Shown in pieces: positions 2,968-42,931 of a stretch of DNA of 64,000 bases. This DNA comes from a virus. Its lineage: Duplodnaviria > Heunggongvirae > Uroviricota > Caudoviricetes. The position numbers were made by a program, and so were the translations under genes. A model generated the notes under the pieces. The model was not told where the DNA came from. It was given only the letters and a program-made list of their open reading frames with translations, and searched no databases. How positions within the stretch are numbered: the stretch's first letter is position 1; each line of letters starts with the position of its first letter. The stretch is taken from IMG/VR virus record IMGVR_UViG_3300035210_000151; one strand, 5' to 3'.

Positions 2968-3876
2968 ATGTTTAAAGTAATTACGCATTCTCAACAATTT
3001 CACCTTGACGAATTGATGGCTGTTGCCCTTTTGGATCTGTATGTATTCAAGGGTGAAAAGTTTGAACTCATTCGCACCCGAGATAAAACGATTGTTGCAG
3101 CAGGTCAAGATGACGCCAACACCTTTGTGATTGACGTAGGTTTGAAATATGACCCAGCTATGCGTAACTTTGACCATCACCAGAACGACAGTAGCCTTTG
3201 CTGGCCTGATGGGGTGCCATTGTCTTCTTGTGGTATGGTTTGGAAATGGCTTCGTGATAACAAGATTCTTCACCAGAAGATGAATGATGACACAATGAAT
3301 ATCTTTGAACGTGATTTTATTCGCCGTGTAGATATGCAAGATAACGGTATTTCAAAATTCAGTGATTGTAATTTCTTGGTAATGTATAACCGTAAGCCCG
3401 ATGATCCGCGTGAGCAAGACAAACAGTTCATGTATGCACTGAAAGCGGCAAAGTCACATTTGATTAACTATTTTGCTTATGTTCGTGGTAACATGAAAGC
3501 GGAAAAATCCATTGTAAAAGCTATCAAAAACAGTGAGAAATATAAAGATATTGTAGTCTGTGATAGTAACATCAAGGATGCTGCCAAACGTATTGCTCAG
3601 TTGACTGATAAAAAGATGGTAATCTATCCTCACAGTAATGGGGCATGGGCTATCGAAACCGTTCCATTGAATGCGAACGATGAATATTCAAAGAAAGTTC
3701 CAGCTCCAAAAGAGTGGTTGGGATTGAGCGGCGAAGAATTGGAAAAAGCTTCTGGTATTAAAGGCTTGTTCTTTTGCCATAAAGGGGCTTTTATCACCAT
3801 GTTTAGAGGCGAGCTTGATGATGCGATTAAAGTTGCTCGTGTAATGATTTTGAAACATGAAGGCCACATTCAGTAG
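2968..3876 (+). CDS. MYG1 (UPF0160) family exonuclease/metal-dependent hydrolase
   Basis: THSQQFHLDE, VIDVG, FDHHQ and FCHKGAF motifs; start moved to ATG after CAGGA. Confidence 0.8.
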   Translation: MFKVITHSQQFHLDELMAVALLDLYVFKGEKFELIRTRDKTIVAAGQDDANTFVIDVGLKYDPAMRNFDHHQNDSSLCWPDGVPLSSCGMVWKWLRDNKILHQKMNDDTMNIFERDFIRRVDMQDNGISKFSDCNFLVMYNRKPDDPREQDKQFMYALKAAKSHLINYFAYVRGNMKAEKSIVKAIKNSEKYKDIVVCDSNIKDAAKRIAQLTDKKMVIYPHSNGAWAIETVPLNANDEYSKKVPAPKEWLGLSGEELEKASGIKGLFFCHKGAFITMFRGELDDAIKVARVMILKHEGHIQ

Positions 3877-26384: not shown

Positions 26385-26413
26385 TTGAATTTTTTTAAGC
26401 GGGCTGCTATAAT
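26385..26413 (+). promoter_or_regulatory. sigma70 promoter of the Ser/Tyr leader
   Basis: TTGAAT-17 nt-TATAAT with TG extended -10; inverted repeat CCGCTTGA/TTAAGCGG overlaps the -35. Confidence 0.75.
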
Positions 26414-26447
26414 GGATACTATTATTTACTTTGTGGAGAAATACAAA

Positions 26448-26498
26448 ATGAAACCTACATTTGCTGTATCCTATTATTATTCATCATATTCTAGTTAA
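26448..26498 (+). CDS. Ser/Tyr-rich attenuator leader peptide MKPTFAVSYYYSSYSS
   Basis: GGAG RBS at 26435; codons TCC TAT TAT TAT TCA TCA TAT TCT AGT then TAA. Confidence 0.8.
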   Translation: MKPTFAVSYYYSSYSS

Positions 26499-26587
26499 CT
26501 GACCAGAGTAGAGGTCAGTTATGGCCTCGAATTCTTGGATAGTAATTATCTTAGACCCTTTGAAGGCCACCTTCAGAGGGTTTTTTT
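26496..26587 (+). promoter_or_regulatory. Ribosome-mediated transcription attenuator (four competing hairpins)
   Basis: A 26496-504:26513-521; B 26511-517:26522-528; antiterminator C 26522-531:26559-569; terminator D 26555-565:26571-581 plus T7. Confidence 0.8.
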
Positions 26588-26627
26588 ATGTCCATAGTGG
26601 CAGGGTTAAGTTCAACCTAAAACAATG

Positions 26628-26640
26628 TAAGTTGTTGATT
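26628..26640. promoter_or_regulatory. IHF consensus site
   Basis: Reverse complement AATCAACAACTTA fits WATCAANNNNTTR. Confidence 0.45.
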
Positions 26641-26677
26641 TAAAAAGAAAATAGTTTAAAATAATTTAAAATAGTTG

Positions 26678-26706
26678 TTGACAAAGACGAAAGAAGTTGA
26701 TAGAAT
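26678..26706 (+). promoter_or_regulatory. Strong sigma70 promoter directly upstream of tRNA array
   Basis: TTGACA-17 nt-TAGAAT with AT-rich UP-element-like region. Confidence 0.85.
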
Positions 26707-26758
26707 GTTAAACATGAAGAGTTGAGAAGAAAAACGAAAAACTCTTAGTAACACAAAT

Positions 26759-26846
26759 GGAAGATTGGTCGAGTGGCCGATGGCGTCAGTCTTGAAAACT
26801 GAAGGGTGTAACAGCTCCGTGAGTTCGAATCTCACATCTTCCTCCA
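26759..26846 (+). tRNA. trnS: tRNA-Ser(UGA) copy 1
   Basis: Acceptor GGAAGAT/ATCTTCC, loop CT-TGA-AA, long V arm, TTCGAAT, encoded CCA; unusual U73. Confidence 0.93.
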
Positions 26847-26868
26847 AATTTAGTTTCAAAAGTATCAT

Positions 26869-26952
26869 GGTTAGTTGGCAGAGTGGACGATTGCGGGGGA
26901 CTGTAAATCCCTTCCGAAAGGCACGGTGGTTCGAATCCATCACTAACCACCA
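26869..26952 (+). tRNA. trnY: tRNA-Tyr(GUA) copy 1
   Basis: Acceptor GGTTAGT/ACTAACC, loop CT-GTA-AA, A73, CCA. Confidence 0.93.
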
Positions 26953-26974
26953 AATTAGTTGTAAACTGTTTTAT

Positions 26975-27058
26975 GGGAGTTTCGCATAGTGGCCGATTGC
27001 ACGGGACTGTAAATCCTGCTCGAAAGACTCGGTGGTTCGAATCCATCAACTCCCACCA
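26975..27058 (+). tRNA. trnY: tRNA-Tyr(GUA) copy 2
   Basis: Acceptor GGGAGTT/AACTCCC, loop CT-GTA-AA, A73, CCA. Confidence 0.93.
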
Positions 27059-27086
27059 AATTTAGATGTAATCGTAAGAACAATAT

Positions 27087-27175
27087 GGACGCATTTCCTG
27101 TCATCCGCCTGTAAAGCGGACGCCTTTATAAGACAGGTCGGTTGGCGAGAGGTTCGAATCCTTGTGCGTTCACCA
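27087..27175 (+). ncRNA. Atypical tRNA-Tyr(GUA)-like RNA lacking a D hairpin, potential pseudoknot
   Basis: Acceptor GGACGCA/TGCGTTC, stem TCCGC/GCGGA with CT-GTA-AA loop, T loop TTCGAAT, ACCA end; D region only 10 nt, and its CCTGTC is complementary to GACAGG in a 27-nt variable arm. Confidence 0.75.
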
Positions 27176-27197
27176 AATTAGTTGTAAAACCGTATAT

Positions 27198-27285
27198 GGA
27201 AGCTTGGCCGAGTGGTTTAAGGCAACAGTCTTGAAAACTGTCGGGTGTAATAGCCCCGTGAGTTCGAATCCCACAGCTTCCGCCA
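27198..27285 (+). tRNA. trnS: tRNA-Ser(UGA) copy 2
   Basis: Acceptor GGAAGCT/AGCTTCC, G73, CCA. Confidence 0.93.
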
Positions 27286-27308
27286 GATTAGATACAATGT
27301 TTTATTAT

Positions 27309-27392
27309 GGGTGTTTCGCATAGAGGCCGATTGCGGCTGGCTGTAAACCAGCATCGAAAGACACGGTGGTTCGAATCCATCAACACCCACCA
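27309..27392 (+). tRNA. trnY: tRNA-Tyr(GUA) copy 3
   Basis: Acceptor GGGTGTT/AACACCC, stem GCTGG/CCAGC, A73, CCA. Confidence 0.93.
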
Positions 27393-27405
27393 AATTTATA
27401 TTTAT

Positions 27406-27458
27406 GGAGAGTATGGGGCTGTTGTTATCTCGTAACAATGGTTAACCGCTATCCACCA
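27406..27458 (+). ncRNA. CCA-terminated mini-hairpin RNA, copy 1 (53 nt)
   Basis: GGAGAG...CTATCC-ACCA acceptor-like stem plus 11-bp hairpin; same spacer context as the tRNAs. Confidence 0.65.
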
Positions 27459-27462
27459 ACAT

Positions 27463-27550
27463 GGAAGCGTGGCCGAGTGGTTTAAGGCAACAGTCTTGAA
27501 AACTGTCGGGTGTAACAGCCCCGTGAGTTCGAATCTCACCGCTTCCGCCA
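27463..27550 (+). tRNA. trnS: tRNA-Ser(UGA) copy 3
   Basis: Acceptor GGAAGCG/CGCTTCC, G73, CCA; near-identical to copy 2 with compensatory 7:66 change. Confidence 0.93.
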
Positions 27551-27556
27551 AATTAT

Positions 27557-27607
27557 GGGGAGAAGGGTTGTCTTTTATTTATAGAAGGCGATATCCGCTA
27601 CCCACCA
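27557..27607 (+). ncRNA. CCA-terminated mini-hairpin RNA, copy 2 (51 nt)
   Basis: GGGGAG...CTACCC-ACCA; covaries with copy 1; 9-bp hairpin. Confidence 0.65.
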
Positions 27608-27627
27608 TTTCATCGTCAAAAAACTTC

Positions 27628-27658
27628 AAGAACAACGCAATGTTGTTCTTTTTTTATT
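27628..27658 (+). terminator. Terminator of tRNA array
   Basis: AAGAACAAC-GCAAT-GTTGTTCTT plus T-run. Confidence 0.8.
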
Positions 27659-27671
27659 TATAAAATTTTAA

Positions 27672-27700
27672 TTGATTTTTTATGTAATTAAGAGTATCAT
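27672..27700 (+). promoter_or_regulatory. sigma70-type promoter of toxin-like cassette
   Basis: TTGATT-17 nt-TATCAT. Confidence 0.55.
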
Positions 27701-27732
27701 TCTTTTTCAATTTATGATAAGGGATTTAATTA

Positions 27733-28805
27733 ATGAAAATGAAGTTAAGATATTTTTTAGTGTTATTGTTATCACTTGTCATATCAACAAGTCAAGCAAA
27801 CTCTTTAACAAGTCACATACCTTTTTTTCCGTCTAAAAAAACTATTATTAAAGGTGTTCTGGTAACTGGAACTATTGGAGTGCTTGGCTACTATGTTTAT
27901 TCACAATTATCTAAATTTATTGAAAATACAATAAAAAAAATGATGAGGGAAAAATATCTGACTGGGAAACAGCTAATCTTATAGCTAAAGAAATTGATAA
28001 AATACTCAATAATCCTAAAAAAACAGATCAACAAAAAAGTCAAAGTGTTGTTGAAGCTCAACAATTGTTGCTTTATTATGCCATTGCGTACTATGAACCT
28101 AATGGAAACGATATTTATGATATTGCAATTAGGACCGCAAAAAAAGCAAATATTTATACTGGTGATTTCGATTATGAGTTACAACAAGGCATTAAAATGA
28201 CGACTGAAATTATGCGTAATATGATTTCATTAGCTAATGAAAAAGATATGGAAGATACTAAGTCAAAAAGAAATAAGTGTGATATTAATGATATAGCTGC
28301 TAGAACATATATTTACAATTCATTAAATCCAATTGATCCATTGTACACGGATGTTAATCGACCTATACGTGAATTTGACACTGGAGCTTATAAAAACTTA
28401 AACTTTGTAACCAAAAAATATGCAAAATTGTATAAAATAAAAGATAATTTTGATCATGATCATATTCCGTCTTTTGCTTCATTAAAAACTTATTTAGAAA
28501 ATAGAGATCAATATGTAATAAATTTTGATAATAAATTAAGGAACGTTATTCAACAAAATGGCACTGTAGTTGCAATTAATCAAGCAATGTACGCTGCTGG
28601 GCGAACGTATAAGGGGCGAGCTACATCTACTATGATAAGAGATTCAAAAGATCTTAGAAAAGCAACTATAAAAGATTTTAAGATGCATTATTATTATTAC
28701 AAAAAAAATGGATCAAGTAACCCTAGTTTTGAAACTTTATTTAATAAAGCTTTTATACAAACGTATCAAAGAAATAAAATGATGTGTTTATATGTTAACC
28801 GATAG
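27733..28805 (+). pseudogene. Frameshift-split exported polymorphic-toxin-like gene (signal peptide + TM + DHIPS nuclease-like domain); -1 shift at A8 27933-27940 gives 357 aa
   Basis: Frame 1 ORF 27733-27984 overlaps frame 3, which is open from 27924 to 28805; junction ATA AAA AAA A; DHDHIPSFASLK...RTYKGR resembles HNH-like toxin tips (from memory). Confidence 0.55.
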
Positions 28806-28813
28806 GAGATGTT

Positions 28814-29257
28814 ATGAATATTAAGATATTAGAAAATAATGAATATAGAGAAAAATTAGAAGAGTTCTTTTATGATGTTGAATTTACAAACATATATCCA
28901 TTTGAAGAGTATTTACTTATTAGTGAATCTTTAAAGCATAAAAAAGTGAAAAATTCGTGTGACATTATAAAAAAAAGCAATGTGTTTTGCAAAATTGCTA
29001 GTGAACATTATGCTATTTTAAAATTAAATGCAGTAGATTATATTGTTCAAATTAGTGATTATGGTGAAGTTGGCATTTGTGGTACAACTTTGTCTAATTG
29101 GATTGATTGTATTTTAAATATACATGGCGATGAAAACAACATTGAAGACTTCATGTCATTCTGTTTTGAAAAATTTAACATTCCTATTGAATATCCTGAT
29201 TATGAGGCTATGATGGAGATAGAAAGGCAATACTTGAAACCATTGATTGATTGTTAA
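28814..29257 (+). CDS. Candidate immunity protein
   Basis: Acidic 147 aa gene 8 nt after toxin-like stop with AGGAG RBS; immunity role inferred from position. Confidence 0.5.
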   Translation: MNIKILENNEYREKLEEFFYDVEFTNIYPFEEYLLISESLKHKKVKNSCDIIKKSNVFCKIASEHYAILKLNAVDYIVQISDYGEVGICGTTLSNWIDCILNIHGDENNIEDFMSFCFEKFNIPIEYPDYEAMMEIERQYLKPLIDC

Positions 29258-32916: not shown

Positions 32917-33807
32917 TCATATTTTTACCATTTCAACAAGCAAAAAATATTCTTTCAATTCATTAACCGACAATGACTCTAATTCTTTTTTACTGATCTT
33001 TAAACGATTTGATAATACATTTATAATTTGATTTGAAAATAATTTATTGAAGTATTGTCGTATATCAGTTTCATTTAACTCATAGTATTTTTCTTGATTA
33101 ATATGTTGTGTGGTTAACGTTTTATCATCTGTATAGATATACATTTTATTGCTTCTTCCAACAGGCGTGACACAACTAATTTTTTTGTTGTCAAAGTAAG
33201 GTAACCTAATTTTGAAGTAAGGATGCATTGTATTGTCTGAATGCACTAAATAAATGAGATCAATATTAATGTAAGATTTCTTAAAGTGTTTATCTTTGAA
33301 ACCTTCACCTTTTTGCAGGATATTATTAAAATGAATCATAGCAACATTTTTGCTTGTAGTGCTAATATTCAATGTATGAAAATTAGCATTCAGGTGATTT
33401 TCTATATTTTCAGAATACTCTTTTTTATCAGTTATTTTTATAATTTCAGTTTTTGTGCCTTCATCAATAAACCAATCAATCACATTGATAATTTTATTAA
33501 AATCTGGCTGATACATTGTTTCAATGATTGAACCAATATTGATGTATTCTTCTTTCATCATGTATGGAGTATTAAAAACTAACCTACCTAGATAATTTTT
33601 ATCCAGATCCTTTATTTTTTCTTGTGGCTCGAATATGACTTGGGCAGTGACATAAGAATCGGGTGATGTAGATGTATAAACATTTCTCAGAATATAGTTG
33701 AACCTGTCTTTAATTAGAGATTCTTTCACATCAGTAAAAGTAAAATGTTTACTAAATGTTTTAAATAAGTTATTAACCGCTCTATGATTTGAAAAACTAG
33801 TAGACAT
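32917..33807 (-). CDS. ~300 aa paralog family member 1 (detached from main array), Met(-4) tag
   Basis: FKKSYINIDLIYLVHSDNTMHPYFKIRLPY; ends ELKEYFLLVEMVKI. Confidence 0.85.
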   Translation of the reverse strand: MSTSFSNHRAVNNLFKTFSKHFTFTDVKESLIKDRFNYILRNVYTSTSPDSYVTAQVIFEPQEKIKDLDKNYLGRLVFNTPYMMKEEYINIGSIIETMYQPDFNKIINVIDWFIDEGTKTEIIKITDKKEYSENIENHLNANFHTLNISTTSKNVAMIHFNNILQKGEGFKDKHFKKSYINIDLIYLVHSDNTMHPYFKIRLPYFDNKKISCVTPVGRSNKMYIYTDDKTLTTQHINQEKYYELNETDIRQYFNKLFSNQIINVLSNRLKISKKELESLSVNELKEYFLLVEMVKI

Positions 33808-33842
33808 ATTAATATCCTTTATTGATGAGAGTGAACTGTTTA

Positions 33843-34529
33843 TTAAATTTTTTGCATTTCGTCAACGAGTTGAAAATCTTTGATGATTTTTTGAGTGCCC
33901 TTGTAATCTTTAACAACGGTTTCAAGATCTATATTGTATTTTTTGATAGTATAATCATCTTCGAAAATAAAATAGATAACTCGTTCTCTGACATTGGTGC
34001 AGTAGTCTGGGGAATTCCACAGTCTGCTGTTTAATTTTTCAATAACCGTTATATCAGCTACATTATATTTTTTTGTGGCTGTGTTTGCAGAACTAGTAAT
34101 TTCAATATAAACATCTTCACTGCTTTTTACTTGGGTTAAATTAGCGTCATTAAAGGCACATTCAAAAATAAAAGTGAGTTCTTCAATGTCTGCAATTTCT
34201 TCATATTGACGAGCATAGTCAGCGATTGCATTGTTATCAATATCAAAATTAATATCGGTGAATTTGAATGCAATTAGCATGGTAAACGCATACACATAGG
34301 TTGCTTGTTCAAAACGAGATAGACCTTGTGATTGATCATAAAAAGAGTCATTGAAATAGTGACCAAATGCTGAATTTTTGAAGTTGCTTATAAAATTCTT
34401 ACACTTGACCATCTTGGTCTTATTGTCAGCAGAGATGTCCAGTGCTTTCCAATCTAACTCAGGGGTTTCTTTTTCGACCACAAAAAATCCATTTGATGTT
34501 AACGTAGGTGATTGTGCTATGGTTGTCAT
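33843..34529 (-). CDS. Hypothetical protein with Met(-4) tag
   Basis: Ends KDFQLVDEMQKI. Confidence 0.75.
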   Translation of the reverse strand: MTTIAQSPTLTSNGFFVVEKETPELDWKALDISADNKTKMVKCKNFISNFKNSAFGHYFNDSFYDQSQGLSRFEQATYVYAFTMLIAFKFTDINFDIDNNAIADYARQYEEIADIEELTFIFECAFNDANLTQVKSSEDVYIEITSSANTATKKYNVADITVIEKLNSRLWNSPDYCTNVRERVIYFIFEDDYTIKKYNIDLETVVKDYKGTQKIIKDFQLVDEMQKI

Positions 34530-34601
34530 GGGAAACCCTCTAATTGAAGGCCAATTATATCATAATTAGCCTTTATTAACAATGGATATCATCGCTTGCT
34601 A

Positions 34602-35021
34602 TTAAATAGCCTTTCTAAGTCTATTGTTATCAATGACTTTTTCTGGAATAGCGATAATGGCTACGTTCTTGTAAAAACTTTCATCCAAAGAGAACGCTGG
34701 AAAGTCAACATCAATGTCTGGGTTCATTTTCTTAAAGCTATCTTTAAGGAAAATAGTCTCAACCAGTGTTAAAGCACTGAATACATCGCCTGTTACGAGT
34801 AGGTGATAGTTATTCTTGTCCAACTGCTCAACATAGGCTTCAATCGCCATTTTCGTTAGCAATGATTCCGATTCTGAAAGATCTTGGCTTTTGAGTTTCT
34901 TTTTTAAGGATACCAAAACACATTCAACATCTTGAAATTCACAAAAGCTACTAAATTTAATGGTATTTTCAATTTCTAAAATGGCTTGATTTATTTTAAC
35001 AAACGAATGATGCCGACTCAT
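34602..35021 (-). CDS. Hypothetical protein
   Basis: GGAGG RBS. Confidence 0.7.
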   Translation of the reverse strand: MSRHHSFVKINQAILEIENTIKFSSFCEFQDVECVLVSLKKKLKSQDLSESESLLTKMAIEAYVEQLDKNNYHLLVTGDVFSALTLVETIFLKDSFKKMNPDIDVDFPAFSLDESFYKNVAIIAIPEKVIDNNRLRKAI

Positions 35022-35056
35022 GTAACCTCCATATTATAAATAAGTCATCTATTATA

Positions 35057-35962
35057 TCAGATTTTAATCATTTCTACCAGCACAAAATATTCTTTAAGTT
35101 CATCAATAGTGAGTTCGTTAACATCTGATTTTCTCATTTTTAATGTTTCACAAATAACATTTTTAGCTTCTGCCCTAAATTGATTTTCGAAAAAATCTGT
35201 CAATGATTGACTATCAACATCTATGCTATTCAACTTTCTCAAAAAATCATTTTTCAAGGGGACTTCACTGGCAGCAAAATACATTTTTTTAGGATTATTT
35301 ATTGGAATTATACACATTATTTTATTATGTGCTGAATAGGGGAATTTTATTTTAAAATATGGCTTAATAGTTTCATCAGGCTCTACAAGATGAATTACTT
35401 CGATATTAATATAAGACTTCTTGAAATAATTCTTTTGAGCACCCCGGCCTCGTTGAAGAATATTATTAAAGCTTACTGTTGCAATATTTTTGTCTTTGAA
35501 TTTTAATTGATTGAAATAACCATCATTGTAGAAATGAGTGTTCATGTGTGGGATATATTTTTTCATTTCGACACTGTTAATCAAACCAGACTCAATACCT
35601 TTGTTAATGAAAATATCGACAATATTGAGAGCTTTCTCAAAATCTGGTTTATATTTATCTTGAAGAAAATCAGCTATATTATTAGCTTTTTGACTAAGAA
35701 CAGTTCGCAATGTCGGGCCATAAGACATAACACTTATTTCTGGGTAGTAGTGTAGTTTTTCTTGGCTGCTTTTAGTTTTATTTTCAAAATATATTTGCAT
35801 AGTCCATTGATCATTTTCTGTTGTTGCTTTATAAATTGTAGCTGCAATATCATTATCAGAAAATCTTTGTTGTTCTACATTGTGTTGATTGAATACAAAT
35901 AAAGGTGAAATGGATTTCACAAAATGATTAACAGATGACTTATTGAGTAGTGTTTTAAACAT
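35057..35962 (-). CDS. ~300 aa paralog family member 2
   Basis: Start moved to MFKTLL after GGAG; ends ELKEYFVLVEMIKI. Confidence 0.85.
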   Translation of the reverse strand: MFKTLLNKSSVNHFVKSISPLFVFNQHNVEQQRFSDNDIAATIYKATTENDQWTMQIYFENKTKSSQEKLHYYPEISVMSYGPTLRTVLSQKANNIADFLQDKYKPDFEKALNIVDIFINKGIESGLINSVEMKKYIPHMNTHFYNDGYFNQLKFKDKNIATVSFNNILQRGRGAQKNYFKKSYINIEVIHLVEPDETIKPYFKIKFPYSAHNKIMCIIPINNPKKMYFAASEVPLKNDFLRKLNSIDVDSQSLTDFFENQFRAEAKNVICETLKMRKSDVNELTIDELKEYFVLVEMIKI

Positions 35963-36033
35963 GAAAGACTCCACAATTATGGCTAATTAATGTAGTATTA
36001 TACCATAAAGGACTTGGCTAAGTCCATATTTTG

Positions 36034-36957
36034 TTATATTTTAATCATCTCTACCAGCATAAAATAATCTTTTAATTCATCTGCAGATAAATTATCTAAT
36101 TCAGTTTTCTTAATTTTCAATGTTTTAGAAATTGTTGTTTTTATTTCATTTTCGATTTCACCCTTAAAATATTCAGCTAACTTGTCTTTTTTTAAAGGCA
36201 TTGAAATTATTTTATCAATAGGTGTTATTCTCAACGACTCAGAATCCCCCACCAAATAAAGTATATCACCACCTGCTAGTGGAAGAACATAAGTGTTTTT
36301 ATTCGTTGCTGATGTAGGTAGTTTTATTTGAAAATAGATATTTACTTCATTCATTGAGTCTACTAAATAAACTACATTTATACATATAAACGATTTTTTA
36401 AAATGTGTTCCGTTTTTTCCTGTTCCCTTTTGAAGCACATTATTAAATTTAATACTCGCATAGTTTTTATCCCATAGCTTTATTTGTCCATGATAATGAT
36501 TGATATGCATATGAGAAATCATGTGTTTTTTATATTTTTTCACATCAACACTGTTAAACATGCCAGAATGAAGACCTTGTTCAATAAAAATATCAATAAT
36601 CTCAATAACTCTGTCAAAATCAGGGGTATAAGTTGTTTGTAAAAATTCAGCAATCTCTTTGCTTTTTTGGAATCTCTCAGCAACAGATTCTCCATTGTAA
36701 TGGGTCATCTTAGATTTCAGATCTTTTTCGAATGAAACATAGGGATAAAACTTCTTTCTAATCATGTTGTCTTTTTTTGGACCATAAAATTGTGTTATTA
36801 ATTGCCAGCCTTCGTCAGCTTGTGCTATATATTTTGTAGATTCAGAATCATTAAAACCATCGTAATATTCATCTGTGTATTTTGAGTATTTAAACAACGG
36901 CTCAAATATTTTGAGTATGTTATTGGCCTCTTGATAATTCTTGTATGAGTTAAACAT
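36034..36957 (-). CDS. ~300 aa paralog family member 3
   Basis: MFNSY start; ends ELKDYFMLVEMIKI. Confidence 0.85.
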   Translation of the reverse strand: MFNSYKNYQEANNILKIFEPLFKYSKYTDEYYDGFNDSESTKYIAQADEGWQLITQFYGPKKDNMIRKKFYPYVSFEKDLKSKMTHYNGESVAERFQKSKEIAEFLQTTYTPDFDRVIEIIDIFIEQGLHSGMFNSVDVKKYKKHMISHMHINHYHGQIKLWDKNYASIKFNNVLQKGTGKNGTHFKKSFICINVVYLVDSMNEVNIYFQIKLPTSATNKNTYVLPLAGGDILYLVGDSESLRITPIDKIISMPLKKDKLAEYFKGEIENEIKTTISKTLKIKKTELDNLSADELKDYFMLVEMIKI

Positions 36958-36983
36958 AATATTCTCCAAAACGTTCCATTCAA

Positions 36984-37913
36984 TTAAATCTTCAGCATTT
37001 CAACGAGTACAAAATACTCTTTCAATTCTTCTGGTGTTATTCCATCCATATCTGACTTATTAATTTTCAGTGTTTTAGAAATAGATGTTTTCATTTCTTT
37101 GTAAAACTCTTTATCAAAAAAATCTTTTAACTCTGTTTCGTCCATTGAAATTGAAGGCAATGTATCAATGCATTCTCTTCTCAATTTGTCATCGTTTGCC
37201 ATAAAATAGACAATAGCCTTTCCTGTTAATGGAATCACACAGGTTGCTTTTCGAGACTCTGAATATGGTAATCTTATTTTGAAATAAGGGTGCATTGTGT
37301 TATCAGAGTGAGCTAGATAATCAATAGATACACTAATGTAGGATTTTTTGTAGTGAGTAGTGCCACGATAACCAGAAACCCCTTTCTGCAGGATATTATT
37401 AAAAGTTACTGTACCAAAGTTATTGTCACCAATGGTAATAGTTCCAGAATAATGATTGGTGTTTAAATGAGTTTTCATCACTTTTTTGTATTTTCTCACT
37501 GCAAGGCTTTTAAACAGTCCACATTCAATTCCTTTCTCAACAAAGAGTTTAAGAACAGTAAACATTCTATCAAAATCTGGATTGTAGGTCTTTTGTAAGA
37601 GTTCCACAATTTCTTTGCCTTTAAGTCTTCTGTCTTTGTGTTGATCTTCGTCAAAATTACGAACACGATCTCCCAGTTGTTTAAATTTAATTTCTGGGTA
37701 GTAGGACTTTTGATCACTTTTTGAATTTTTTTTGTTATAAAACTCAATATACAATTCCCAATTATCATCAGTTATTGCCGTATAGGTTGTGACAGAGATG
37801 TTGAAATCCGTATAGGGCTTGAACTCTTCATTAAATTTGACAAAATTGAACACTTTTGAAAACAGAGTGACCAGATGATTGGCTTCTGGGTGGTTCGGAT
37901 AGGTATTAAACAT
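36984..37913 (-). CDS. ~300 aa paralog family member 4
   Basis: MFNTY start; ends ELKEYFVLVEMLKI. Confidence 0.85.
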   Translation of the reverse strand: MFNTYPNHPEANHLVTLFSKVFNFVKFNEEFKPYTDFNISVTTYTAITDDNWELYIEFYNKKNSKSDQKSYYPEIKFKQLGDRVRNFDEDQHKDRRLKGKEIVELLQKTYNPDFDRMFTVLKLFVEKGIECGLFKSLAVRKYKKVMKTHLNTNHYSGTITIGDNNFGTVTFNNILQKGVSGYRGTTHYKKSYISVSIDYLAHSDNTMHPYFKIRLPYSESRKATCVIPLTGKAIVYFMANDDKLRRECIDTLPSISMDETELKDFFDKEFYKEMKTSISKTLKINKSDMDGITPEELKEYFVLVEMLKI

Positions 37914-38028
37914 AATATACTCCAAAAATATTTAATAATTGTATCATAAATAAATATTGATTGCTATTTTTTTTGCAATAAAAAAAGACCTTTCTTAAGG
38001 TCTTTTATCGGACTTCATGAAAAGTCAG

Positions 38029-38970
38029 TTAAAACTTTACCATTTCTATTAGAATGAAATGGCTTTTCAATTCATCATCGGTCATTTTAACTAATTCAGT
38101 TCTTTTTATTTTCAGGGTTTTAGAAATGACATTTATTATTTCTTTTTTAAAGTTATCTCTAAAGAATAATTCTAAATAAGCATTGTCAGTTGGGTGTTCT
38201 TTAAGGTTGTCAATATAGTCTTCTTTCAAATGACTGTCTTCACTGACAAAATACATTTTTGAACAATCAAAAGAAAGAATGCAGTGTATTTTTTTGTGTG
38301 ATGAATAGGGTAATTTAATTTTGAAGTATGGGTTAATTTTATTATCTTTACTAATGAGATACAAGAAATCTATACTTAAATGAGATTTTTTAAATTTCGT
38401 TTCATTTGCTCTTAATGTTTGCAGCACATTATTAAAAGTTATTTTTGCAGCGACTCTGCTGTTAAAAAACAACCTATTGTAACCATTGTAGGTGTTTTCA
38501 TACCTGTAAAATTGCGTGCTAACATCTCCATTATGTGGAATTACTTTCACACTATTATAGATACCTGTGTTAATACCTTGTTGAAGATAGATTTCAATTA
38601 TCTCCATCGCTCTTTTAAAGTCAGGTTTATATATTTTTTGAAAGTGCTCCATTATTTTTTCTGCTTGTAGCTTATTAGCGATTTCTTCATCAGGTGTTGC
38701 TGGTCTTTTAACACCTTTGTAATCAGAATGGTCTTGTTTTCTATTTTTTTCAAATTCTACAACAGGGTAATAGTATTTCGAATCAAGACCTTTGGCTTTA
38801 TCTGTTTCAAACGTTGCTGTAATACTCCAATTATCATCAGTAGTTGCCACATAGGCTATTGAGTCATACCACTTATGTTTAGTTTCATCGAAGTCTACAA
38901 TATTTAATACAGGTTTAAATAATTTAACCAATTGATTGATTTCTTCATGATTATGGTGTTTTTCAAACAA
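38029..38970 (-). CDS. ~300 aa paralog family member 5
   Basis: TTG start after GGAG (MFEKH); ends ELKSHFILIEMVKF. Confidence 0.8.
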   Translation of the reverse strand: MFEKHHNHEEINQLVKLFKPVLNIVDFDETKHKWYDSIAYVATTDDNWSITATFETDKAKGLDSKYYYPVVEFEKNRKQDHSDYKGVKRPATPDEEIANKLQAEKIMEHFQKIYKPDFKRAMEIIEIYLQQGINTGIYNSVKVIPHNGDVSTQFYRYENTYNGYNRLFFNSRVAAKITFNNVLQTLRANETKFKKSHLSIDFLYLISKDNKINPYFKIKLPYSSHKKIHCILSFDCSKMYFVSEDSHLKEDYIDNLKEHPTDNAYLELFFRDNFKKEIINVISKTLKIKRTELVKMTDDELKSHFILIEMVKF

Positions 38971-39054
38971 GGGATTCTCCAAATTATTAATATAAATATC
39001 ATAACATTAAAAACAACAAATACCATTGTATACGGATAATTTGATAGACTATTT

Positions 39055-39960
39055 TTACAACTCCATCATCTCAACCAGAGTAAAATAGTCTTTTAATTCC
39101 TCGCTGGTCAATCCGTCTAACTCTTTTTCAGTAATTTTAAGGGTTTTAGAAATAATGTATACCATTTCATCTTTAAATTGATTTTTAAAAAATGATTTTA
39201 GAGAAGCAGGATCGGATGAGAACTTCATTACCTGATTAAAATAACCTTCTTTAAAAACGTTGTCTGCGTTGGTAAAATAAATCGTTGATTCGCCAGACAA
39301 TGGAATGACACACGTCACTTTACGTTCAGTAGAATAAGGAATTCTAAGGACAAAATATGGTTTCATTTTATTATCGTCACTGACTATATGCATAATTTTT
39401 ACACTAATAGTTGCCTTTTTAAAAGCCGAGCTGTTTTTTCCTGAACCCTTTTTAAGAACATTGTTAAATGTTATATTTGCGATATTTTTTTCACAAAATC
39501 TCAAGTTTTTATAATAATCATCCACAATAAAGTGAGAACTCATACTTGGAGTGTATTTTTTCATCTCAACAGAGTGAAATAAACCCGATTTAACACCTTC
39601 GTCTATAAACAGTTGAATGACAGTTTTCACTTTCTCAAAATCAGGTTTATATACTTTTTCAAATTGTTCAACAATTTTTTTACATGTATTCTTTTTTTCA
39701 AACGTCATATAATTGTTTTTCAATTTTTTAAAGGTTATTTCTGGGCAAAAATGTTTGTGATTTTGATTCGCTAAGAATCTGTTATGGAAAGAAACAATTA
39801 GACTCCAATCATCACTATTTGTGGCTTCATATACTGACTCACCGATATCAGTTTGATACTTTTTCTTGTTATCTTCTTTAAAACTAGAAAACACAAATAA
39901 TGGTGACAATTTTTCAACAAGATCGTTTACTTCTGTATAGTTGGGCATTTCTGAAAACAT
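39055..39960 (-). CDS. ~300 aa paralog family member 6
   Basis: MFSEM start; ends ELKDYFTLVEMMEL. Confidence 0.85.
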   Translation of the reverse strand: MFSEMPNYTEVNDLVEKLSPLFVFSSFKEDNKKKYQTDIGESVYEATNSDDWSLIVSFHNRFLANQNHKHFCPEITFKKLKNNYMTFEKKNTCKKIVEQFEKVYKPDFEKVKTVIQLFIDEGVKSGLFHSVEMKKYTPSMSSHFIVDDYYKNLRFCEKNIANITFNNVLKKGSGKNSSAFKKATISVKIMHIVSDDNKMKPYFVLRIPYSTERKVTCVIPLSGESTIYFTNADNVFKEGYFNQVMKFSSDPASLKSFFKNQFKDEMVYIISKTLKITEKELDGLTSEELKDYFTLVEMMEL

Positions 39961-39993
39961 AATAATCTCCGGTGGTGAATTATTTCAATAATT

Positions 39994-40902
39994 TTAAATC
40001 TTAACCATTTCGACAAGAATAAAGTACTCTTTCAATTCATCATTTGATAAACCAGTTAATTCAGACTTCTTAATTTTTAATGCACCCACAATCACGTTCT
40101 TGACTTCATTTTGTAGTTCTTTTTCAAAGAAGTCTGATAATGATTTGTCATCCATTGAAACTTTTTCATTCAGGTTGTCCACATATTTTTCTTTTAACAC
40201 GTTATCTGTTTCGGCTATATACATTTTAGAGCTTCTGCTCAATGGAATGATACAAGTCACTTTCTTTGTTGCTGAATAAGGTAGTCGGATTTTAAAGTAA
40301 GGCTTTAATTCATTATCTGAGCTGACCAAATAAATGATTTCTATATTGATGTAAGCTTTCGTGAATGAACGACCTAAAGAACAATTATTTTTTTGAAGCA
40401 CTTTATTTAACATGACAGTCGCATAGTTAGTGCCATTAAATGATATCTTCTGATAATACTTGTGCATACCAAAGTAGTTACTGAGATGTTGCGTTTCATC
40501 TTTTAATTTCACATGATTAAACATACCAATATCAATACCTTTTTTTACAAAAATATCAATAAGGTTACGAACTTGATCAAAATCAGGGGCATAGTTATTT
40601 TGAAATAGTTCAGTGAGTTCAGCCACCTTGTCTAGTTTTATGGCAGTCAGATAATCTGATACAGTGCGTTCAAACCTAATTTCAGGATAATAATGTTTTT
40701 GATCGTGTTTGCTTCGAAAACGGTTATTGAATGATACAACCAGTTTCCAATTATCATCAGTGCTGGCACTGTAAATAGTGGAGCCAATATCTCGCTCATA
40801 GCTTTTATGATTCTCTTCATGAAAGGTTGTGAAATTAAATACTGATGAAACCTGTTCTACCAGTTTATTAACATCCTCACAATTCTTATATTTTTCAAAC
40901 AT
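39994..40902 (-). CDS. ~300 aa paralog family member 7
   Basis: MFEKY start; ends ELKEYFILVEMVKI. Confidence 0.85.
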   Translation of the reverse strand: MFEKYKNCEDVNKLVEQVSSVFNFTTFHEENHKSYERDIGSTIYSASTDDNWKLVVSFNNRFRSKHDQKHYYPEIRFERTVSDYLTAIKLDKVAELTELFQNNYAPDFDQVRNLIDIFVKKGIDIGMFNHVKLKDETQHLSNYFGMHKYYQKISFNGTNYATVMLNKVLQKNNCSLGRSFTKAYINIEIIYLVSSDNELKPYFKIRLPYSATKKVTCIIPLSRSSKMYIAETDNVLKEKYVDNLNEKVSMDDKSLSDFFEKELQNEVKNVIVGALKIKKSELTGLSNDELKEYFILVEMVKI

Positions 40903-40942
40903 AATTGGCTCCAAATAATTACCTAATTATAGCATACTTTCA

Positions 40943-41857
40943 TTAATATTGCACCATATCAATCAGTGTATAATATTGTTTTAATTCATCCATTGATAAA
41001 ACTCCTACTTCCTTTTTATCTAAATTAAGCTTTTTAGCAATGCTAATTCTCATTTCATTTTGAAAACACACTTTTAAGTAATCTTTAAAATCTTTTTCAT
41101 TATTAGAGATAGCTGTTAATGTATCAATGTATTTATTTTTCCACAATGCATCTTTTTCAAAAAGATAAAGTTCATTTTTATTTTCAAAAGACATCAAACA
41201 AGTCAGTTTCTTATCTGCATTGTAAGGCAGCGTTATTTTGAAATAAGGATGAAGCGTTTCATCAGAATGGACTAAATACACAATTTCCATTTTCAATAGG
41301 GATTTTTTGTAATGAGAATTTTGATATCCCTGCCCTTGCTGAAGAACTTTGTTGTGAATAATCATCATGACTTTTTTCTCAATAAAGCTTAATGTGCCGT
41401 GACGGTGACTATCAATAGTTAGATGACTAGTCATTTGAGGTGAATAGCATAACTCTTCGTTATTTATGATAAGACACGATTCAATACCTTGTTCGACAAA
41501 CCATTTGATAATTGTCATAGGAAGACTAAAATCAGGGTTATACTTTTCGTGTATTCTTTCACTCAGGGATTCTGCAAAATCGTAAAGTGCATAATTTCTG
41601 ACGTTATTAAAATCTTTGTTAGTAACTGATATCTCTGCTTTATATTGTTTTTTAGCAGTCTTTTCTTTTGTGTTGCTTCGAAAGCGAATCAGAAAATTCC
41701 AGTCATTATCAATCGTGGTTGCTTTATAATCAGTACATCCAATGTCACGATTCATATTGAATCCATTTTCGACATTAAGACTTTTAAATTGATAAAAGTC
41801 TTTAAATTGTTCTAAAAAGTGATAAGCTTCTTTGCTATTGGGATATTTTTCAAACAT
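40943..41857 (-). CDS. ~300 aa paralog family member 8
   Basis: MFEKY start; ends ELKQYYTLIDMVQY. Confidence 0.85.
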   Translation of the reverse strand: MFEKYPNSKEAYHFLEQFKDFYQFKSLNVENGFNMNRDIGCTDYKATTIDNDWNFLIRFRSNTKEKTAKKQYKAEISVTNKDFNNVRNYALYDFAESLSERIHEKYNPDFSLPMTIIKWFVEQGIESCLIINNEELCYSPQMTSHLTIDSHRHGTLSFIEKKVMMIIHNKVLQQGQGYQNSHYKKSLLKMEIVYLVHSDETLHPYFKITLPYNADKKLTCLMSFENKNELYLFEKDALWKNKYIDTLTAISNNEKDFKDYLKVCFQNEMRISIAKKLNLDKKEVGVLSMDELKQYYTLIDMVQY

Positions 41858-41893
41858 AGATAACTCCAAATAATTATTGATTACGATAAAAGT

Positions 41894-42811
41894 TTAAATG
41901 TTTACCATTTCAACAAGCACAAAATATTCTTTCAATTCATTAATGGTTAAGTCTTTCAAATCTGTTTTACTAATTTTCAAGCGAGTAGAAATTGTATTTT
42001 TGATTTGCCTCTCAAAGAGTTGTGTGAACAGGTCTTTGAGCTTACATTCAGTCAATGCTTCTGGTGTTTGTTGGTCAACGTGGTATTTATCCAAATGACC
42101 ATCATCCAAAAAGAAATACACTTTATCTCCCAACATAGAGAGAACACAACTGATTTTCTTATTTTCAAAATACGGCAACCGAAGTTTAAAATAAGGGTGC
42201 ATTGTATTATCAGAATGCACCAAGTAGATAAAATCTACATTGATGTAAGATTTCTTAAAATGTTTTGACTGGATACCTTCGCCTTTTTGAAGGACATTAT
42301 TAAAATATACATCGGCCACGTTTTGATCTGTAATATGAATTTTATTGTCATAATAATGAGCTAAAATATGTGATTCCATACTTTTTTTGTAGTATTTTTT
42401 ATCCACTACGTTAATAACGCCTGCTTGGGTGCCTACATCAATGAACCAATCCATAATTTCAGTAATTCTATCAAAATTAGGCGTATACATTGTTTCTAAC
42501 ATGCGAACAATCGTTTGAGCGTCATTTCTAATTTTATCAGAGTTGAACACTTGAACTTCATTGTCAACAAAAACGAGTTTGGCGATCTTATGTTTCCGTT
42601 GTGTTTGATTTTTATGTGTTTCGAGTGGGTTCATGAAGATGACTTCAAGATCCCTTTGACCTGCTTGTGAAGTGGCTTCATACACAGTTTTAAAGACATA
42701 ACCATGCCTGTCAGCGTAGTTTGCTTCTTTGAAATTACTGAATTTAAAATCATTTTCGAACGACTCCAAAAGAGCATTAACTTCAAGATGATTGGGATAG
42801 ATTTCAAACAT
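41894..42811 (-). CDS. ~300 aa paralog family member 9
   Basis: MFEIY start; ends ELKEYFVLVEMVNI. Confidence 0.85.
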   Translation of the reverse strand: MFEIYPNHLEVNALLESFENDFKFSNFKEANYADRHGYVFKTVYEATSQAGQRDLEVIFMNPLETHKNQTQRKHKIAKLVFVDNEVQVFNSDKIRNDAQTIVRMLETMYTPNFDRITEIMDWFIDVGTQAGVINVVDKKYYKKSMESHILAHYYDNKIHITDQNVADVYFNNVLQKGEGIQSKHFKKSYINVDFIYLVHSDNTMHPYFKLRLPYFENKKISCVLSMLGDKVYFFLDDGHLDKYHVDQQTPEALTECKLKDLFTQLFERQIKNTISTRLKISKTDLKDLTINELKEYFVLVEMVNI

Positions 42812-42931
42812 AGCATTCTCCACAAATATTTGTCATATTATACCATAAAACATTAAAAATTACTATTTAAACAGACAAAAAAACCTCCGAAGAGGCTTTT
42901 TATTTATTTCTTAACTGTTCCTATGAGAGCA

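Follow-up and report, generated by a model that had tools for sequence, protein, structure and literature searches.

In this work, we have analysed a 64,000-nt stretch of DNA (hereafter the window; about 32% G+C) from an uncultured huge phage, and by comparison with related huge-phage contigs we show that two very small genes of its serine/tyrosine tRNA operon, mini1 and mini2, specify RNAs whose hairpin fold is under purifying selection. Both carry an acceptor-like stem of seven positions, a discriminator A and an encoded CCA. Judging from this comparison, they are very probably real, selected, structured RNAs. Our best overall explanation, which we hold tentatively and at somewhat less than even confidence, is that they are paralogous, acceptor-derived small RNAs, transcribed within the Ser/Tyr operon and acting as mimics of the tRNA acceptor end.

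The Ser/Tyr operon and its two hairpin genes

Positions 26678-27657 of the window form a single transcription unit of nine tRNA-sized or smaller genes, in the order Ser(UGA), Tyr, Tyr, a Tyr-like RNA without D arm, Ser(UGA), Tyr, mini1, Ser(UGA) and mini2. The signals at its two ends show that the operon has a strong sigma-70-type promoter and an intrinsic terminator. The features discussed here are the following:

26448..26590, plus strand: leader ORF MKPTFAVSYYYSSYSS, encoding a Ser/Tyr-rich peptide, then a terminator hairpin
26678..26706, plus strand: operon promoter TTGACA-17-TAGAAT, 11 of 12 positions matched, with a TG extension; conserved in relatives
26759..27392, plus strand: upstream part of the array (Ser(UGA), Tyr, Tyr, Tyr-like RNA, Ser(UGA), Tyr)
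27393..27405, plus strand: 13-nt spacer AATTTATATTTAT ahead of mini1, its length kept in seven arrays and below the 22-28 nt that separate full tRNAs
27406..27458, plus strand: mini1, acceptor-like hairpin RNA gene of 53 nt, identified by its fold and seven orthologs
27463..27550, plus strand: tRNA-Ser(UGA), acceptor GGAAGCG/CGCTTCC, flanked by mini1 and mini2
27557..27607, plus strand: mini2, a mini1 paralog of 51 nt, identified by its fold and by a match to a model built from mini1 only
27628..27657, plus strand: intrinsic terminator ending the operon, 20 nt 3' of mini2
27733-27984, 28065-28805 and 28814-29257: unrelated ORFs downstream of the array

An earlier reading of this DNA, made from the sequence only, had drawn attention to the two hairpins, and we found their sequences and coordinates as it gave them. 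It had also noticed that they start with GG after an AT dinucleotide, as the tRNAs do, and indeed every gene of the array, both minis included, is preceded by AT, begins with GG and has an encoded CCA. Ahead of mini1 the AT is the end of the spacer AATTTATATTTAT and places a U at position -1. A-CCA is the ending of the Tyr genes and of both minis, while the Ser genes end in G-CCA or U-CCA. The tRNAs of the array are of class II only, present in diversified copies. The tRNA-Ser(UGA) at 27463..27550 has mini1 4 nt upstream and mini2 6 nt downstream, and the spacers adjoining the minis (4-13 nt) are short compared with those between full tRNAs (21-35 nt, mostly 21-25).

The acceptor-like stem of mini1 consists of G1-C, G2-C, A3-U, a G4.A mismatch (27409/27451), A5-U, G6-C and U7.G, that is, a tRNA-type acceptor of six standard pairs with one purine-purine opposition. 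An internal loop, a 12-bp distal stem and a 3-nt loop follow, and the 3' end is A73-CCA. The corresponding stem of mini2 is G1-C, G2-C, G3-C, a G4.A mismatch (27560/27600), A5-U, G6-C and A7.G, continued by GG/CC pairs, a distal stem of 11-13 bp and a 4-nt loop, again with A73-CCA at the end. RNAfold returned the same arrangement for both: 3 bp, the mismatch, 2-3 bp, an internal loop and then the distal stem. The folding energy was -16.3 kcal/mol for each, with z = -1.9 for mini1 and z = -2.2 for mini2 relative to shuffled sequences, and the reverse strands gave no fold (z = +1.2). That the distal hairpins pair in both had been stated before; the lengths then given (11 and 9 bp) were slightly short, because G.U pairs had been left uncounted. 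The shared 5' and 3' blocks that had been described, GG.GAG.A..GG and CCGCTAYCCACCA, are present in both genes. The second has two exact copies in the 64-kb window; with up to two mismatches it has 3 matches against 0.4 expected, a count reached by none of 100 shuffles.

The prediction that standard tRNA finders would overlook these genes was borne out: ARAGORN and the Rfam tRNA model (E <= 10) detected six tRNAs and neither mini, and across all Rfam families, those of Y RNAs included, nothing matched mini1 or mini2 at E <= 10. The lack of an anticodon arm and a T loop was likewise confirmed, and neither gene contains a loop of the TTCGAAT type. They also depart from the canonical acceptor/T-arm minihelix (7 + 5 bp and a 7-nt T loop), since about 7 + 2 + 11-12 pairs, interrupted by internal loops, make up their helix, and a non-conserved loop of 3-4 nt closes it. 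Without anticodon, D or T arm they cannot decode. We considered an armless decoding tRNA and rejected it: the would-be anticodon varies among close relatives (CUC, GUC, GUU, ACU) and sits in a loop of 3-4 nt.

The Tyr-like RNA without D arm (27087-27175) is another gene of this operon that ARAGORN and Rfam miss. It has a GUA anticodon loop, a T loop and A73-CCA, and it was found in all seven arrays examined, with a mean pairwise identity of 0.94. One metatranscriptome contig (X19) spans the region from tRNA-Ser to mini2; it may be DNA carry-over, and as such contigs carry no information on ends or strand it is not evidence of expression.

Conservation of the fold in related huge phages

To gather relatives, we searched with a DNA pattern taken from a conserved part of the Tyr-like RNA and anchored on the flanking proteins. 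This gave six further lineages with arrays (L012/L019/L022, L020, L021, L045, L047 and L054) and the mini2-bearing contig ends L051-L053, from which we recovered seven distinct mini1 and four distinct mini2 sequences. One relative is an IMG/VR contig of 437 kb, 98% complete by CheckV, which has 27 tRNA genes and no CCA-adding enzyme of the PolyA_pol family. Further relatives lie on contigs of 520 kb, 604 kb, 1.04 Mb, 1.84 Mb and 1.86 Mb; those above 1 Mb may be phage-like genomes of that size or misassemblies. Close relatives of the operon came from peat, wastewater and groundwater runs, and from runs labelled with single organisms. The contigs that were anchored on an upstream protein (P0002-P0007) all stop at the repeated promoter described below or at the tRNA array.

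The layout is invariant in seven arrays: a 13-nt spacer (AATTTAGATTTAT), mini1, 4 nt (ACAT or ATAT), tRNA-Ser, 6 nt and, where present, mini2. The tRNA-Ser beside the minis has the acceptor GGAAGCG/CGCTTCC in every lineage with minis. Mini2 is missing from the arrays of L020, L021, L045 and L047, and a related lineage (L048-L050) has a minimal Ser-Tyr-Ser array without any mini. Two mini2 copies (L052, 26-76, and L053, 3-53) are a variant with UCA for CCA, ending ACCCAUCA and not ACCCACCA; the L051 copy keeps CCA and is otherwise identical to this variant. Lineage L012 also has a degenerate mini-like element between Tyr2 and Ser(UGA) (3126-3213), the 3' 53 nt of which score 23.9 bits with the mini1 covariance model described below. 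Its distal hairpin, CCACCA and 4-nt distance to tRNA-Ser are intact, its 5' acceptor strand has been replaced, and an extra 5' hairpin stands ahead of it.

In the relatives the fold has been kept. In the seven mini1 sequences, 97.6% of the pair cells are paired, and changes on both sides occurred at three pairs: 3:47 (= 3:70), 18:32 (C-G/U-A) and 19:31 (A-U/G-C), the first of them being G-C in four sequences and A-U in three. None of 500 shuffles reached the covariation score of mini1, and when the 3' partners were slid by 1-3 columns only 29-67% of the cells remained paired. All pair cells (100%) are paired in the four mini2 sequences, where four pairs have double changes. Among the six closest mini1 sequences, each of the 12 variable columns is a compensatory partner, a G.U-to-A-U change, position 4:69 or part of a loop, and no pair has been broken. 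What is conserved lies at the acceptor end and the junction: no change occurred at pairs 1, 2, 5 and 6, 3:70 covaries and the loops drift.

Position 4:69 is G.A, A.A or A.G in all 11 sequences and never a standard pair. Since only transitions separate these three states, its constancy could be partly mutational; the mismatch has nevertheless persisted while adjacent pairs were repaired. The compensatory A-U/G-C change at pair 3 that had been pointed out from the two window copies therefore stands, and so does the G.A at pair 4 in these copies, but the relatives show that the constant feature is a purine-purine opposition and not G.A as such. The minis, at an identity of 0.90, do not exceed the spacers (0.89-0.94), so that the case for selection is carried entirely by covariation and the pattern of change.

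A covariance model (R1) built from four mini1 sequences only scored 77.5 bits on mini1 of the window and also recovered mini2, with 25.7 bits and E = 7e-4 in 140 kb. On the 437-kb relative it matched two places only, both in the Ser/Tyr array, despite the other tRNA clusters of that genome, and it had no matches in four other huge or large phage records. As the minis are invisible to tRNA finders and to Rfam, this model, together with the fixed layout around tRNA-Ser, offers a way to annotate them.

Pattern searches added little to these relatives. The pattern GGRGAG..CCGCTAYCCACCA had 11 matches in IMG/VR, which we discarded as chance matches with different folds outside tRNA arrays. The pattern GGTTAACCGCTRYCCACCA had none in IMG/VR and, in the GTDB genomes, one that we also attribute to chance, in a Poribacteria MAG. 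CCACCANNNNGGAAGCGTGGCCGAG returned from IMG/VR the known 437-kb contig only, besides two unrelated phages in which tRNA-Gln precedes tRNA-Ser, and a scan of IMG/VR with the Tyr-like RNA pattern returned nothing, although L012 contains that pattern. When each mini and the whole array were compared by blastn with 50,697 GenBank phages, only the tRNAs were matched, and megablast with 25 kb of the window found no close relative among GenBank phages. Our literature search found no paper on phage tRNA operons with natural genes for hairpins that lack an anticodon and end in CCA. With no matching Rfam family, GenBank phage or paper found, we regard the minis as RNAs of an undescribed kind.

Possible roles of mini1 and mini2

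Our current hypothesis is that mini1 and mini2 are two paralogous structured-RNA genes derived from the acceptor end of a tRNA, and that they would be transcribed together with the other genes of the Ser/Tyr tRNA operon. Bacterial RNase P acts on acceptor-type hairpins with a 3' RCCA, and on pre-4.5S RNA and phage M3 RNA (PMC11143913), so the minis are probably excised like the surrounding tRNAs. The enzyme would cut at the U(-1)/G(+1) junction, and 3' exonucleases would remove the trailers, 4 nt in mini1 and longer in mini2, as for the neighbouring tRNAs, leaving two rods, 53 and 51 nt long, in which the A73-CCA end is free. By analogy with these substrates, we consider their release as CCA-ended RNAs moderately probable. 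The released RNAs could then be bound by a partner protein that recognises the CCA end together with the first five or six pairs of the acceptor; as mimics unable to decode, they would soak up, or compete for, an acceptor-end enzyme. Candidate targets are a synthetase, or a toxin of the host that recognises the acceptor stem or whose action is to modify the CCA end, in the setting of an operon whose other products would replenish the class II tRNAs (Ser and Tyr) destroyed by known defences. Such an action in trans, as acceptor-end mimic or decoy, is a tentative proposal to which we give rather less than an even chance.

Several observations are consistent with it. Invariance of pairs 1, 2, 5 and 6, covariation at pair 3 and a purine-purine opposition at 4:69 make up the pattern that would be expected of RNAs read by an acceptor-binding protein. 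The toxSAS toxin FaRel2 efficiently modifies a synthetic minihelix, of which it reads pairs 1, 2, 4 and 5 and not pair 3 (PMC11559606), and the conservation of pairs 1, 2, 4 and 5 as against 3 in the minis is a circumstantial parallel. Phage tRNA genes are now known as counter-defence tools: the variable arm of tRNA-Tyr is where Septu and retron-Eco7 cut, and infection is rescued from both systems by phage tRNA-Tyr expressed from a strong promoter (PMC11555353, PMC13096335). The context of the operon, with this precedent, its class II array and its Ser/Tyr leader, points to counter-defence by analogy. At its most specific, the hypothesis would be that huge phages make decoy RNAs that are matured by the host, co-induced with spare class II tRNAs by a Ser/Tyr attenuator and able to sponge acceptor-reading defences, which we regard as speculative and rather unlikely in this full form. 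The sponged effectors may be toxSAS toxins, nucleotidyltransferases of the MenT/AbiE type or acceptor-stem nucleases, and the mismatch at 4:69 would make such RNAs good binders and poor substrates of the translation machinery. If phages do make anticodon-less, acceptor-only RNAs, these would add a second RNA-based layer to the arms race, one of mimics rather than replacements. The UCA variant of mini2, the degenerate copy of L012 and the mini-less array of L048-L050 speak against the mimic hypothesis. A decoy for defences that attack acceptor ends, which the sequence-only reading had proposed, stays plausible, with a processing role in cis almost as likely.

In that role, the minis would serve in cis to process or insulate the terminal tRNA-Ser, and the excised hairpins would be by-products. 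An RNase P site 13 nt after the preceding tRNA (mini1) or 6 nt after tRNA-Ser (mini2) would give short precursor trailers without RNase E, and would free the last tRNA from the terminator or from the mRNA of the endonuclease gene PDDEXK_5 that follows in relatives. This explanation, which we hold with only slightly less confidence than the mimic hypothesis and regard as its main rival, fits much of the layout. The order of spacer, mini1, tRNA-Ser (GGAAGCG) and mini2 is invariant across the seven arrays, the fixed abutment of 4 and 6 nt to one tRNA-Ser supports a processing role equally well, and the spacers next to the minis are those that are shortened. The PDDEXK_5 gene begins close behind mini2 or tRNA-Ser with no terminator before it, and both GGAAGCG tRNA-Ser genes of L012 have a mini-like element 4 nt ahead, one of them with a broken acceptor. 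RNase P is moreover described as separating closely spaced tRNAs and removing terminators (PMC4176162). Mini1 would be redundant in such a role, however, since the next tRNA already provides an RNase P site; arrays without mini2 (L020, L021, L045, L047) or without any mini (L048) exist; and a mere cleavage handle needs neither an invariant acceptor, nor a constant purine-purine mismatch, nor a covarying 12-bp distal stem. It is less probable still that the minis are carriers, charged, most likely with tyrosine, by a phage or host synthetase and serving as a non-ribosomal amino-acid donor or as a sink or regulator for a phage TyrRS or SerRS. A73 and G1-C72 belong to the bacterial tyrosine identity and several synthetases charge minihelices (PMC9976931), the Tyr genes of the array end in ACCA as the minis do while the Ser genes end in GCCA or TCCA, and the 437-kb relative has two class Ib synthetase genes, one of them 16 kb upstream of the array. 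Yet two major determinants of tyrosine identity, U35 and the class II body, are missing, the 4:69 mismatch lies inside the stem, and no evident aminoacyl-transferase adjoins the operon.

The sequence-only reading had allowed that the hairpins might be tRNA deletion remnants if no homologs with a conserved or covarying stem existed. Such homologs do exist, and their compensatory changes and kept pairing indicate selected genes and not decaying tRNA remnants. We therefore consider it very improbable that the minis are non-functional internal-deletion remnants of class II tRNA genes inside a conserved operon, even if their ends resemble those of their neighbours (GGAGAG as in Tyr2 of the relatives, CCGCT.TCC as in tRNA-Ser), their identity does not exceed that of the spacers and one L012 copy shows visible decay. 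Compensatory changes on both sides are found at seven pairs, with almost no broken pair among lineages that diverge at as many as 36% of positions, two paralogs are held at fixed positions, and the mismatch stays purine-purine in 11 of 11 sequences. The least probable explanation, to which we give hardly any weight, is that a Ro60 (TROVE) protein of the phage has the minis as its Y-RNA-like partners. Their shape would suit it, as the 5' and 3' ends close a long stem that has a conserved irregularity inside, and a distant relative, L043 (2-1558, minus strand; its phosphatase is 61% identical), encodes a TROVE-domain protein (35 bits). The mini-bearing 437-kb relative, however, had no TROVE gene in searches with Pfam PF05731 and with the L043 protein, and no Rfam Y-RNA family matches the region (E <= 10).

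Among the nearest known RNAs are the synthetic acceptor/T-arm minihelices and microhelices used as model substrates for RNase P, for aminoacyl-tRNA synthetases and for toxSAS toxins. The minis share with them a single hairpin with a 7-position acceptor base, a discriminator and a 3' CCA, and no anticodon (PMC11143913, PMC9976931, PMC11559606). Like these models, they would be expected to be handled by enzymes that read the acceptor end only. Unlike them, the minis are natural genes, their irregular helix has about 21 bp compared with the 12 bp of the models, their loop has 3-4 nt in place of the 7-nt T loop, and they keep the purine-purine mismatch at 4:69. For 35 years, synthetic minihelices have been used in work on RNase P, synthetases and toxins that target tRNA; if our hypothesis is right, the minis would be their natural counterpart.

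The tRNA cluster of phage T4 includes the stable RNAs C and D, and RNAs of this sort are partly without known function. Phage M3 RNA, the C4 antisense RNA of P1/P7 and pre-4.5S RNA are small, hairpin-type RNAs matured by RNase P (PMC11143913), the fate that we propose for the minis. In contrast to all of these, the minis are shorter, have a full A73-CCA end and exist as two paralogs, both linked to one tRNA-Ser; the Rfam search revealed no similarity to the non-tRNA substrates of RNase P. The phage tRNA-Tyr that rescues from Septu and retron-Eco7 comes from the same type of operon, with tRNA-Tyr copies under a very strong promoter, and works largely by abundance (PMC11555353, PMC13096335). It is a full, decoding tRNA, however, whereas the minis have no variable arm, the site of the Septu cut, and so cannot replace or mimic the Septu target. 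With the bacterial Y RNAs of the YrlA type (Ro60) they share a tRNA-mimicking end on a non-coding RNA, but they have no tRNA-like elbow module and no Rfam match, and a close relative lacks a TROVE gene. The tRNA-like punctuation elements (t-elements), which stand at mRNA boundaries and let tRNA-processing enzymes cut the message there, are also among the nearest known things. Mini2 lies 16-17 nt before the PDDEXK_5 start codon in L051 and L054, and in the window mini2 precedes the terminator and mini1 stands between two tRNAs. The minis appear to belong with tRNA-mimicking small RNAs handled by tRNA-processing enzymes, here with a distinctive architecture and context.

The leader peptide and the surroundings of the operon

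Directly upstream of the Ser/Tyr operon, positions 26385-26590 of the window contain a promoter-like site, a 16-codon ORF ending in SYYYSSYSS and a strong terminator hairpin. The leader peptides of the relatives (MKPTFKFSSSYYYSYSR, ..TTSYYYSYYSH and MKTIKFTSSYYYSYYSH) otherwise differ, and the Ser/Tyr run is kept in all lineages. The Rfam His_leader model scored 32 bits on this region, under its cut-off of 49. Based on this arrangement, the ORF and terminator are probably an attenuator that senses Ser/Tyr and passes read-through transcripts into the operon. The retention of the Ser/Tyr run in differing peptides suggests that the operon is induced when charged Ser- or Tyr-tRNA is scarce; a tRNA operon behind a leader-peptide attenuator would be a rare case.

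In four public runs, the segment that comprises the operon promoter and the A/T-rich DNA upstream of it (26578-26722) was covered by many distinct contigs, and their summed depth was about 5-15 times as high as on either side, which suggests that this promoter cassette is repeated many times in these genomes. At the other end of the array, a gene for a PD-(D/E)XK endonuclease (PF11645/PDDEXK_5, 49 bits) follows directly in L020, L021, L045, L047, L051, L054 and L048. It has its own ribosome-binding site and starts 13-17 nt past the last tRNA-Ser or mini2, with no terminator between. Its place in the window (27608-29257) is taken by the terminator and the unrelated ORFs listed above. Many of the window proteins have no Pfam or PHROG match. 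Farther downstream, at 32917-42823, eight genes for proteins of about 300 aa stand in tandem on the minus strand, with one more nearby.
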